From positions 1 to 49,313 of the forward strand of contig JAHHIM010000034.1 of the NCBI GenBank assembly GCA_019358915.1: 49,313 nucleotides of DNA, read 5' to 3'. This document shows, in pieces, positions 29,255-33,479 of the stretch. The notes under the pieces are model-generated. The model searched no databases and was not told the origin of the DNA. It worked only from the letters and a program-made list of their open reading frames with translations. The stretch is from Trichormus sp. ATA11-4-KO1 (GTDB lineage: Bacteria > Cyanobacteriota > Cyanobacteriia > Cyanobacteriales > Nostocaceae). Made by a program: the position numbers and the translations under genes. How positions within the stretch are numbered: the first letter of the stretch is position 1; every line of letters starts with the position of its first letter.

Positions 29255-30220
29255 ATGCTCATCTCTCATACTCGCACCGTTACATATAGCCCTGCTCATA
29301 CAATCGTTCCCACTTATGAGTGCTTTAATCGCTGCACCTACTGCAACTTTCGCACCGAACCCGGTCAAAGTCCCTGGATGACTGTATCAGCAGCAGAAAG
29401 TATTTTGCTACAACTGCAAAACCAGAAAACCTGTGAAATCCTCATCCTCAGTGGTGAAGTACATCCCCATTCATCAAAGCGTCAGACGTGGTTTGAGCGA
29501 ATTTATGATTTGTGTGCATTAGCACTAGCAATGGGATTTTTACCACATACAAATGCGGGTCTATTGAGTTTTGAGGAAATGCAAAAGCTGAAGAATGTTA
29601 ATGTTTCCATGGGTTTGATGCTGGAACAGCTAACCCCAGCATTGTTGAACACTGTACATCGCCACGCACCGAGTAAATTACCTCAAGTCAGGTTGCAACA
29701 ATTACAATGGGCCGGAGAGTTGCAGATTCCCTTTACAACGGGTTTACTCTTAGGAATTGGGGAAACTGAGCATGATTGGTGGGAAACTTTAGCTGCCATA
29801 TCTGACTTACATCAGCGTTACCATCATATCCAAGAAGTAATTCTGCAACCCCACAGTCCGGGGAATCAGCAAACCTTTAATGCACCACCATTTGATCCTT
29901 ATCAACTACCAGACGTTATTGCTAAAGCACGTCAGATTTTACCGTTAGATATTACGATTCAAATTCCCCCCAATTTAGTTAAAGATGAGCGATGGTTACT
30001 CGCTTGTATAAAAGCTGGTGCAAGAGATTTAGGGGGAATTAGCCCCAAAGATGAAGTAAACCCTGATTATCCTCATCTTCAAGAGCAGACATTGAGAGAA
30101 ATTTTACAACCTGCGGGCTGGGATTTAGTACCACGATTACCCGTATATCCGCATCTTGATCATTGGTTATCTGGGGAGTTACAGACGGTGGTGCAGCACT
30201 GGCGAACTCCTAAGAAATAG
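29255..30220 (+). CDS. cofG: FO (8-HDF) synthase subunit CofG, radical SAM
   Basis: VTYSPA..IVPTYECFNRCTYCNF; PFTTGLLLGIGE; DLGGI.P.DEVNP. Confidence 0.92.
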   Translation: MLISHTRTVTYSPAHTIVPTYECFNRCTYCNFRTEPGQSPWMTVSAAESILLQLQNQKTCEILILSGEVHPHSSKRQTWFERIYDLCALALAMGFLPHTNAGLLSFEEMQKLKNVNVSMGLMLEQLTPALLNTVHRHAPSKLPQVRLQQLQWAGELQIPFTTGLLLGIGETEHDWWETLAAISDLHQRYHHIQEVILQPHSPGNQQTFNAPPFDPYQLPDVIAKARQILPLDITIQIPPNLVKDERWLLACIKAGARDLGGISPKDEVNPDYPHLQEQTLREILQPAGWDLVPRLPVYPHLDHWLSGELQTVVQHWRTPKK

Positions 30221-30387
30221 TGCTGAGTGCTGAGTGCTGAGTTACGAGTAAAAAGTACAAAGGAATAAAAAGTCCGGAGGATTCTGTTTCTTTCGCCCTT
30301 CCCGCAGGTGCTCCTTCCTTGGAGACTCACATGATTCAGCTTACCTACAGCTAAGTGCAAGGTAATAATAAATTTAGTCTGTGAGTA

Positions 30388-30412
30388 AAATTTCCCCCTT
30401 TGGGGACGGAAG
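30388..30412 (+). CRISPR. Single degenerate CRISPR-repeat-like unit (no array)
   Basis: AAATTTCCCCCTTTGGGGACGGAAG resembles the cyanobacterial repeat 3' half ATTTCCCCGCAAGGGGACGGAAAC; lies 40 nt upstream of cas6. Confidence 0.6.
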
Positions 30413-30452
30413 TTGATTACAATATTTAATACCCCTTTCATAGCACCCAAGA

Positions 30453-31589
30453 ATGGCAGCTAGGCTGATTACTCGTAAACCAAAGTCTAAGTTACAGCCT
30501 TCCTCATCTTTGCCCTCATGGGCAGATGAAACGGAATTGGTAGGATTAGTATTTGACTTTGAACCACTTACATCTAGTTCTCTTTACGCACAATATACCA
30601 TTGCGCTCCATGCTTGGTTTCTTGACCAAGTGCGGCAATTTGACCCAGAACTTTCTGCTTATCTCCATGATGGCGAGTCAGAAAAACCCTTCAATATCTC
30701 AGCACTTGAAGGTCAACTGCTTCCCACTGGCAGACAATTACAACTGGAAGCAAACCAAATTTATCGTTGGCACGTCAATGCTTTATCTGCAAAAGTGGCA
30801 CAGTTTCTCCAACAATGGTTAACTCAACTGCCACAAACCCTAGAGTTAAGAGGTGCAACCCTACAGATAAAACAGGTGAAAATTGCTCATTCACCCACTA
30901 CTTACGCGCAATTATTACAGCCACCAGAAAAATACTCTAACGTCAATCTCAGCTTCGTCTCACCTACTAGCTTTCGCCGAAAAGGTCATCATTTTCCCCT
31001 CCCCGTACCAGTGAATCTCTTTCATAGCTACCTGCGTCGCTGGAATGACTTTTCCGCAATTCCCGTACCACAAGAATCTTTTCTCGACTGGATAGACGAA
31101 GGTGTGATTATTCATCAACACCGCTTGGAATCAGTCAAGGTGGCGGCTGGTAAACGGGGTTCTGTAACTGGTTTCACCGGGGCGATTGCTTGTGGTTTGA
31201 GTAAAGCGGCTTTAGCTAATACCGAGTTTACCCAGTTGTTTTATGCCTTGGTAAAACTTGCACCCTATTGTGGCACAGGACACAAAACCACTTTTGGACT
31301 AGGACAAACTCGTTTAGATTGGGTGCAACCAGAAGCCAGCACATCGACGCAGATACTGACAAATATGCTGGGAGAACGGATTGAGGAATTAACGGCAATC
31401 TTCACTGCACAACGCAAACGTACAGGAGGCGATCGCACTGATAAAATTGCCTCAACCTGGGCAACAATCTTGGCACGGCGAGAAATGGGCGAATCATTAC
31501 AAGCAATCGCCCAAGATTTAGAAATGCCTGTTTCAACAGTTAAAACTTACACCAAATTAGCTAGGCGATCGCTGAAAGATCAGTGCTGA
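30453..31589 (+). CDS. cas6: Stand-alone Cas6 endoribonuclease with C-terminal HTH extension
   Basis: LHAWFL, KPF.IS, F.SPTSFRR, G-rich loop GTGHKTTFGLG; tail GESLQAIAQDLEMPVSTVKTYTKLARRSL. Confidence 0.92.
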   Translation: MAARLITRKPKSKLQPSSSLPSWADETELVGLVFDFEPLTSSSLYAQYTIALHAWFLDQVRQFDPELSAYLHDGESEKPFNISALEGQLLPTGRQLQLEANQIYRWHVNALSAKVAQFLQQWLTQLPQTLELRGATLQIKQVKIAHSPTTYAQLLQPPEKYSNVNLSFVSPTSFRRKGHHFPLPVPVNLFHSYLRRWNDFSAIPVPQESFLDWIDEGVIIHQHRLESVKVAAGKRGSVTGFTGAIACGLSKAALANTEFTQLFYALVKLAPYCGTGHKTTFGLGQTRLDWVQPEASTSTQILTNMLGERIEELTAIFTAQRKRTGGDRTDKIASTWATILARREMGESLQAIAQDLEMPVSTVKTYTKLARRSLKDQC

Positions 31590-31611
31590 GTGCTGAGTGC
31601 TGAGTGCTGAG
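31583..31611. repeat. STRR heptamer array (TGCTGAG); also at 30220-30241 and inverted at about 31937-31990
   Basis: Direct tandem heptamers. Confidence 0.9.
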
Positions 31612-31706
31612 TCAAAAGAAGAAGAAGGAAGGACTTTCGCACTCGGTACAAGCCCCGTCCCTTGTGGTCACTGAGCCTTGCCGAAGTGTGGGCGGTTTTT
31701 TAACTC

Positions 31707-31934: not shown

Positions 31935-31972
31935 AACTCAGCACTCAGCACTTTTAACTTAGCACTCTTCAT

Positions 31973-33301
31973 TTAGGACTCAGCACTGAGAAACTGATTT
32001 TTCCAATTTGCTAAATCAGCTAAAGAGCGATCGCGGTAACGTCCATAACGCTCTGGCTTGCTTTTGATTTTTACGCCTAAATCTGGCAAAATGCCGAAAT
32101 TAGGCGGCATCGGTTGGAAATGCTTAGGCGAAGCAGAACTAATAAATTCTAATAGCGCCCCCATCATGGTGGTTGGTGGTGCTGTCAATGGTGCTTTACC
32201 CAAAGCCAGCCGCGCTGCATTTGTTCCTGCTAACCATCCATCGGCGGCGGCTGCTGTGTAACCCTCAGTACCAATCAACTGTCCAGCTGCTAACAAAGTG
32301 GGACGTTGCTTGAATTGCAAAGTAGGGTACATTAATTGGGGTGCATTGATAAAAGTATTGCGGTGCATCACTCCCAAACGCACAAATTCAGCATTTTCTA
32401 AGCCGGGAATCAGCCGGAAGACTCGTTTTTGCTCACCCCAGCGCAGGTTAGTTTGGAATCCTACCATGTTCCATAGTTGACCGGCTTTATCTTCTTGTCT
32501 GAGCTGCACTACAGCATAGGGACGTTCTCCTGTGCGACTATCAGACAATCCCACAGGCTTGAGGGGTCCATAGCGCATTGTGTCTTCTCCCCGGTGTGCT
32601 TGTTCTTCGATGGGCAAACAAGCTTCAAAAAATTTCGCCGTTTCTCGTTCAAAATCCTTAAGTTCTGTTTGTTCAGCTTGACGGAGTTCTTCCCAAAACC
32701 GCAGATATTGCTCTTTATTCATCGGACAGTTAAGGTAAGCGGCTTCACCTTTGTCATAGCGCGATGCCAGAAAAGCAACATCATAGTTAATCGATTCTCC
32801 CACGACAATGGGACTAGCGGCATCAAAAAAGCTGAGGTATTCCATCCCCGTAAAGCGGTGTAAATCTGCGGCTAAGTCTGGACTAGTTAAAGGCCCGGTT
32901 GCCAAAACCACGATTCCTTCAGGTATAGCCGATACTTCGCCTCGCCGGAATTCAATTAAAGGATGATTAGATAAAGTTGCCGTCAAATCTTGGCTAAATT
33001 GCCCTCTATCTACAGCTAAAGCCCCACCGGCGGGAACAGCATGTTCATCAGCTTTAGCGATGACAATCGAACCAAGTTGACGTAATTCTTCATGCAACAA
33101 TCCTGTAGCGCGATCGCTTGCCATTGCTCCAAAGGAATTACTACATACTAATTCCGCCACATGTTCTGTATGATGAGCAGGACTAAAGCGTTGTGGACGC
33201 ATTTCATGCAGAATTACCGGTACTCCAGCCTGGGCTATTTGCCAAGCTGCTTCTGTCCCAGCTAGTCCACCTCCAATTACTTGTATCGGTTTTTGATCCA
33301 T
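31973..33301 (-). CDS. trmFO: tRNA (uracil-5-)-methyltransferase TrmFO (Gid)
   Basis: [33 protein letters not shown]; probable start MDQKPI at 33301. Confidence 0.95.
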
Positions 33302-33479
33302 AGTTCTATGCTCAGTGTCACCCAATTTTAAATTGCTGGGAGTACATACCAATCATAGATGATATGGATAATCACCAAAAAACGCTTCCTTCCTGAATCA
33401 GGAAAAAGCACTATACTTTTGGGGTGTGTAGCCAATTATCAACAAGTCCGCACAATTTGTTCAATTATGAGTTCAGGCG

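Follow-up and report, generated by a model that had tools for sequence, protein, structure and literature searches.

The cas6 gene described here stands between cofG and trmFO in a stretch of 49,313 nt from Trichormus sp. ATA11-4-KO1 (the window, meaning the whole stretch that was analysed) and is preceded by a hairpin that resembles part of a CRISPR repeat. What does a single repeat-like stem do directly upstream of the gene for a repeat-processing nuclease? An earlier note on this DNA gave an answer at the RNA level, in which Cas6 would act on its own leader. The analysis points to the DNA instead: the palindrome is very probably a DNA-level element under selection. It is a candidate operator for the C-terminal HTH of a Cas6 dimer, probably for autorepression and possibly titrated by array repeats, a reading to which sequence comparisons and structure models give about an even chance. 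The features concerned are the following.

29255..30220, + strand: cofG (FO synthase subunit), upstream of cas6 on the same strand
30393..30406, + strand: palindrome TCCCC-N4-GGGGA, the stem part of a CRISPR repeat (type III-D, group 1); candidate operator, -38..-25
30407..30413, + strand: residual 3' handle of the repeat (consensus Y-G-R-A-A-A), now within the promoter spacer
30418..30423, + strand: -10 box TACAAT (TAnnnT conserved among orthologs), 11 nt past the palindrome
30431..30452, + strand: inferred TSS at A30431 and 22-nt 5' UTR, transferred from an ortholog's mapped TSS
30453..31589, + strand: cas6, 378 aa, Alr1482-type, 76% identical to P0094
30546..31310, + strand: Cas6 nuclease domains with G-rich loop (aa 32-286); predicted dimer interface at aa 177-250
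31374..31583, + strand: C-terminal helical / sigma4-like HTH domain (aa 308-377), the protein's most conserved part
31678..31695, + strand: terminator-like site 3' of cas6, weak (3 found vs 3.0 expected in shuffles)
31973..33352, - strand: trmFO, convergent to cas6

The palindrome reads TCCCC (30393-30397), CTTT and GGGGA (30402-30406) and is followed by CGGAAGT; a gap of 40 nt separates 30412 from the ATG at 30453. The hairpin, the TACAAT, this distance and the two neighbouring genes are all as the earlier note had given them. Its statement that no other cas gene or array lies in the 49 kb held for arrays and for the cas6 and cas1 searches, the Pfam scan covering 6 of 52 ORFs; an array finder detected no CRISPR array on the window's contig. 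A second TAAAAT (30386-30391) directly precedes the palindrome, as it also does in L032, and a start from there would fall within the hairpin. Heptamer tandem repeats (AGTGCTG) lie on both sides of cas6, at 30219-30242, 31582-31612 and 31936-31952. The site was also considered as a minus-strand terminator, and this was rejected, the U-tail not being conserved across orthologs.

The protein is of a known kind. Its matches to PF10040, PF19308 and TIGR01877 are all above cut-off, and its nuclease fold matches solved Cas6 structures. P0094 (377 aa, BAB77848.1) is taken here to be Alr1482, on the basis of its length and accession. Alr1482 processes the group-1 repeats of the III-D system in Anabaena/Nostoc PCC 7120, and it is for this enzyme only that cleavage of group-1 repeats 8 nt from the 3' end was shown (10.1101/2020.04.14.041012). 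Reimann et al. found an extra C-terminal domain of ~70 aa in every member of the clade, likened it to sigma70 domain 4 and called its function 'currently elusive' (10.1101/2020.04.14.041012). The earlier note had made the cas6 call correctly and had missed this domain, which offers a mechanism at the DNA level.

In the window's Cas6 the C-terminal region has helices at residues 299-375, and Sigma70_r4_2 matches the domain with an E-value of 8e-5, below its cut-off. By structure alignment the modelled HTH resembles SigF region 4 (sigma4; Z 7.0, rmsd 2.0, 54 residues) and the DeoR DNA-binding domain (Z 6.8), both being middling values for a small helical domain. SigW region 4 (E 1.2 in a PDB sequence search) and an Atlas value of 0.77 are weak leads only. 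Across the 173 loci described below, conservation of the HTH is 0.88, compared with 0.76 and 0.82 elsewhere in the protein, and T362, K364, T365, Y366 and K368 are conserved at 0.99 or above. A basic motif, R-K-R-x-G-G-x-R (residues 320-328, window about 31410-31436), precedes the HTH; it is near-invariant across the clade and could add nucleic-acid contacts.

The genome contains two cas6 genes, one in a I-D operon and one in the window. On contig C10 a III-D operon holds cas10, csx10 and csx7 without a cas6, flanked by three arrays whose stems read TCCCC-N4-GGGGA, and the window's cas6 is the only Cas6 found that could serve it. Since this operon lacks cas6 and its arrays carry the same stem, a solo cas6 serving distant arrays is ordinary here. 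Nuclease domains, a sigma4-like domain, a cognate III-D operon and group-1-type arrays, which are features of the Alr1482 type, are present. In the I-D operon (L320, G000:C1 125683-137139) cas2 follows directly after cas6, with no cas4 or cas1 in between; cas1 matches occur only at the ends of two small contigs (G000:C52 and C68), one of which adjoins an array with a different repeat.

Stem and handle together, with at most one mismatch, give 14 matches in the 5.97-Mb genome: 13 are array repeats on C10 and one is the cas6 site. Taken alone, the palindrome occurs about as often as expected by chance (5 non-array copies vs 4.6), so the case rests on position and conservation. A palindrome 10-11 nt before a -10-like box and within 125 nt of the start was found for only 1 of 3762 ORFs. 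The site matches its own genome's array repeat at 17 of 36 positions, with 10/10 in the arms, 0/4 in the loop, 4/15 in the 5' part and 3/7 in the handle. The claim that only the loop and the last handle bases differ therefore holds against the common Nostocales repeat end and fails against the organism's own array repeat.

Conservation was followed in 173 distinct full-length orthologs, which remained from 248 loci with a match after removal of 52 duplicates, 14 partial genes, 6 genes with stops and 3 without an anchor. The site is the last repeat of an array in 17 of them; an array ends within 250 nt in 11, lies farther away in 12, and the flank is too short in 10. Of the 123 solo loci, in which up to 3 kb of upstream DNA holds no array, 73 carry perfect arms, 10 have one mismatch, 1 has two and 39 have no site. 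To avoid selecting for the motif, 100 non-terminal loci were anchored on the -10 box and the start codon only. Perfect arms stand 10-11 nt upstream of the box in 73 of these promoters, with one mismatch in 9, two or three in 6, and five or more in 12, which bears out the conservation in orthologous loci that the earlier note's proposal called for.

Changes per column were counted on a FastTree tree for 75 loci (11-nt frame, at most 3 mismatches). They amount to 1-6 in the left arm and 0-3 in the right (means 2.8 and 0.8), compared with 14-28 in the loop and 13-33 in the upstream flank; 38 different loops occur among 83 solo sites. The three handle adenines change 1, 4 and 4 times and have no conserved mirror. 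The site reaches other families and orders at a protein identity of about 54-63%, where the handle can be lost (L217, L218, L220); most of the deepest branches lack it, and its presence or absence switches no fewer than 21 times across the tree. It is found amid many unrelated neighbourhoods (172 neighbour clusters) and is kept in 29 of 38 cas-linked loci, as well as in 16 of 21 named loci whose fetched flanks (up to 8 kb per side) contain neither a bait cas gene nor an array. Other short tandem repeats stand in place of the palindrome in L048-L050, and in L287 and L288 palindrome and -10 box stand intact before apparent cas6 remnants.

The position of the transcription start bears on the choice between leader RNA and promoter DNA. 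It was derived from the published transcription-unit table of Brenes-Alvarez et al. In the rows covered, cas6 of Nostoc 7120 forms a unit of its own, with a start mapped by dRNA-seq and a 5' UTR of 22 nt; the preceding entry is the divergent cas10 operon, and the table shows no unit in the forward direction upstream (PMC10287535). The start was placed on L307, whose protein is identical to P0094 and whose upstream DNA was assumed to equal that of the paper's strain. There it falls on an A located 8 nt past TAAAAT, with the palindrome at -37..-24. The same geometry in the window gives A30431 as the start and about -38..-25 for the palindrome. With the ortholog's start 22 nt before the ATG, the palindrome covers the -35 region and lies outside the primary mRNA, as shown in one ortholog under standard conditions and transferred to the window. 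The searched supplements on Nodularia CCY9414 and CvkR yielded no TSS tables. The hairpin is most probably a promoter DNA element and not a leader RNA site. The TACAAT at 30418, which the earlier note had itself flagged because a start downstream of the hairpin would undo its proposal, is the conserved -10 box, and by way of the ortholog the start does lie downstream.

A functional Cas6 site in the leader of cas6 is not supported by this evidence. What stands of the argument from a kept stem and a drifting loop is that the element is derived from a repeat, conserved and, very probably, selected. The related idea of a crRNA-like RNA with 30413-30452 as its spacer is not supported either: the best genomic match of this 40-mer is 24/40 (shuffles 21-24/40) and that of the other flanking 40-mer 25/40 (shuffles 22-27), both in searches that need a 12-nt exact seed.

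An RNA-level site could still act on read-through or minor upstream transcripts, where Cas6 would bind or cut and thereby uncouple or destabilise the cas6 mRNA; we consider this unlikely. In its orientation and its handle (Y at +1, adenines at +4..+6) the site does match the RNA sense of the repeat. Left-arm C>T changes, which are wobble-compatible, are slightly more frequent (~7 events) than right-arm G>A changes (4 within the 11-nt frame, or 6 when L080 and L162 are included), position 3 being the commonest on both arms, and L030 has one compensatory pair. In addition, cofG lies on the same strand, no + strand terminator-like site was found between it and 30393, read-through from cofG across the palindrome is possible in this organism, and in the 17 orthologs mentioned the site is an array's last repeat. 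However, the mapped start lies downstream of the hairpin, with no forward unit listed upstream in the available table, and the spacing to the -10 box is fixed at 10-11 nt. The upstream ORFs of the 83 solo sites are often divergent (27, against 33 on the same strand and 23 sites with none within 800 nt, by crude ORF calls). The 5' half of the repeat and the loop are gone, and the handle is lost in the sole clade where the site would fall in the UTR. RNA folding of the stretch was no better than that of shuffles (z -0.18 and -0.71).

Self-regulation through an element upstream of cas6 remains the best reading, as the earlier note had it, at the level of DNA rather than RNA, and our confidence in it is evenly poised. 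With regard to its origin, the element began as an array's trailer repeat, as is shown by its terminal position in 17 orthologs and by the decayed repeats upstream of others. An adjacent array is lacking on the window's contig and present in 28 of the 173 orthologs. From the comparison of repeats, the element evolves apart from neighbouring arrays and persists without them. The promoter copies of L026, L067, L072 and L115 have retained TCCCC, against ACCCC in the repeat of the neighbouring array; 44 array consensus repeats comprise 26 with TCCCC, 17 with ACCCC and 1 with GCCCC. Array-type loops occur in 8/95 promoter copies vs 31/43 other upstream repeat-like copies, and perfect arms in 82/95 vs 25/43, the two sets having different mismatch limits and the 43 including 8 reversed-array repeats and ~4 chance matches.

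The same history could have left a functionless relic, that is, the trailer repeat of a lost array, spared by deletions that stop short of the promoter and occasionally refreshed by recombination with arrays. Its terminal position in 17 orthologs, its proximity to an array (at most 250 nt) in 11 more, the at least 13 changes of array adjacency on the tree, the many loci with decayed repeats upstream and the 39 of 123 solo loci without a site would all suit this explanation. Shmakov et al., in the available text, likewise judged type III mini-arrays to be degraded repeats (10.1101/2023.03.03.530964). Nevertheless a relic is highly unlikely. Decay is uneven along the repeat (0-6 changes per column in the arms against 14-28 and 13-33 in loop and flank), so that near-invariant arms surround a scrambled loop and flank; the other upstream relics show the opposite trend in loops and arms, within the differing thresholds given above; and the site is kept across families and orders, where the proteins share only 54-61% identity.

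In the preferred reading, the cas6 promoter would have co-opted the terminal repeat of an array that once lay upstream of the gene, with the stem surviving as a 14-bp DNA palindrome. A Cas6 dimer, paired via the nuclease domains, would bind this palindrome with its two C-terminal HTH domains and most likely repress its own transcription. Group-1 array repeats, which carry nearly the same palindrome, would compete for Cas6, and its level would thereby be tuned to repeat number. Dimeric HTH proteins usually bind sites of this form, a palindrome over the -35 region whose half-sites are spaced by 9 bp, and here a palindrome of fixed gap overlaps the core promoter. Binding by Cas6's own HTH is moderately probable.

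The homodimer model of the window's Cas6 scored 0.74 (best control 0.00), with contacts agreeing at 89% or more and pLDDT of at least 81; of the calibration set, 20 of 30 solved pairs reach the score mark, against 1 of 23 single chains. The modelled interface is the second nuclease domain, and the HTHs lie outside the confident interface. The pass may reflect likeness to solved Cas6 dimers, which, like the middling Z values of 6-7, counts against the operator reading. So do the asymmetry of the arms and the handle adenines without a mirror, which resemble an RNA substrate, and the at least 21 state changes of the site. The recognition helix is near-invariant whether the promoter site is present or absent, and the HTH with this helix is about as conserved (0.83) in 47 loci without the site; autoregulation would therefore not be the sole job of the HTH. 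L080 combines a disrupted recognition helix with a two-mismatch site, as a single case. Cas6 genes without the HTH (253-259 aa) lie within operons in 11 of 11 cases, with the palindrome absent directly upstream, which is a weak control.

The conservation of the HTH without the site would also suit a palindrome bound by a host or other CRISPR-linked factor, or one serving as an intrinsic promoter element, with the Cas6 HTH having another role (contact with array DNA, with RNA or with a protein). No -35 consensus was found in the promoter, whose -35 region the site overlaps, and beside some cas6 loci lie ORFs that look WYL-like and XRE-like by sequence. This explanation is improbable, however. 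The site sequence is exactly the stem of this Cas6's substrate class, and it travels with cas6 through 172 neighbour clusters, including 16 of 21 loci without a bait cas gene or array. A wider regulon was seen neither in the organism's own genome, with 5 non-array copies vs 4.6 expected and the arrangement in 1 of 3762 ORFs, nor in 151 family genomes among the matches listed (28 further matches being unlisted). Those placed there, with 9 hit regions inspected, comprised array repeats and cas6 promoters, along with two remnants of cas6, two sites within III-D clusters and some probable chance matches. In L294 (about 2583, minus) and L295 (about 3142, minus) a repeat half with TAAATT 10 nt later stands before non-cas6 genes in type III clusters, and the same arrangement may serve these other promoters.

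If Cas6's HTH is the binder, as we infer, repression is favoured because the -10 box survives the loss of the palindrome in ~10 loci and because in one six-locus clade the palindrome follows an extended -10 box, TG-n-TAAAAT, at a distance of 10 nt. In this clade, which has no mapped TSS, the handle is lost and the flank is more symmetric. A search of 301 genomes gave no second case of a -10 box followed by the palindrome, its two matches being an array repeat and a chance match in a coding region, so this arrangement rests on one clade. The opposite sign, with the sigma4-like HTH activating in place of a missing -35 contact (positive feedback), could draw on an HTH fold closest to sigma region 4 and on a site centred near -31 with tight 10-11 nt spacing and no -35 consensus. 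It is quite improbable, given that the -10 box persists after loss of the site and that the site can also lie at a spacing of 19 nt (5 solo loci) or downstream of the -10 box (6 loci).

Array repeats with the same palindrome, or one differing by a single base, could titrate Cas6, which would explain why the HTH is kept in the 47 loci without a site; the ACCCC in 17 of 44 array consensus repeats weakens this step. Taken further, Cas6 might act on two substrates, cutting repeat RNA as an RNase and, as a putative transcription factor, reading the same stem as dsDNA, with the lone repeat half in its own promoter as the operator, so that with arrays titrating it the cell would count its chromosomal repeats without an RNA guide. 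We offer this as a tentative extension only.

No description of this promoter element was found in the literature covered, mostly non-subscription papers, to which supplements could add. Alr1482, with the same Cas6 and C-terminal domain of ~70 aa, likewise serves distant group-1 arrays; unlike for the candidate here, no promoter palindrome or autoregulation is described for it (10.1101/2020.04.14.041012). In the accessible portions of the reports on CreR/crlRNA mini-arrays, solitary repeat units and Racrs, a degenerate repeat outside the array is also tied to control of cas expression, possibly by sensing array load (10.1101/2023.03.10.532045, 10.1101/2023.03.03.530964, PMC10651486). As far as these texts go, those are transcribed RNA guides or decoys with full or nearly full repeats, in types I and V (10.1101/2023.03.10.532045, 10.1101/2023.03.03.530964, PMC10651486). 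The site here differs in being a stem only (17/36 identity to the host array repeat), in lying upstream of the ortholog's mapped TSS, read-through from cofG being possible in this organism, in having no target-matching spacer above shuffles, and in belonging to type III-D. For type III loci, the available text of Shmakov et al. reports no conserved repeat-like elements and calls those present degraded (10.1101/2023.03.03.530964).

Cbp1 and Cbp2 of Crenarchaea are likewise proposed, in the accessible parts of the papers, to read CRISPR repeats as dsDNA and to affect transcription, as stand-alone archaeal proteins with three imperfect repeats (PMC3315313, PMC10883916, PMC3597662). Unlike in Cbp1/Cbp2, the candidate reader here is a single HTH joined to the processing nuclease, and the promoter of the nuclease gene itself holds one site of repeat origin. 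By analogy, the proposed element would be CreR-like in effect, tying the cas level to array load, and Cbp1-like in chemistry, and would belong to neither. Regulators of the CvkR type are reportedly dedicated proteins whose operators are unrelated to the repeat, whereas the operator proposed here is the repeat stem. These HTH autorepressors of CRISPR loci have, in the part of the source available, a palindromic operator overlapping the core promoter, as here (PMC9938897).

For a widespread cyanobacterial Cas6 clade, whose HTH its describers left unexplained, the analysis thus offers a specific 14-bp candidate site and its position. If true, the processing nuclease would itself read a repeat as DNA and so bring about cas autoregulation, in type III, where repeat-like elements had been judged non-functional. 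This could then account for the scaling of Cas6 in cells whose orphan arrays are numerous, and it has a bearing on the dampening of I-D crRNAs that was reported for Alr1482.

Decayed mini-arrays of two to three repeats were also observed 100-650 nt upstream of cas6 in L037, L044, L051, L053, L061 and L090. No targets of their spacers were found in the same locus. The spacers are conserved between Nostoc species, and the mini-arrays mostly lie right behind an ORF of 131-145 aa without a Pfam match. A second conserved pair, 67 nt apart, is present in L043, L047, L066 and L074.
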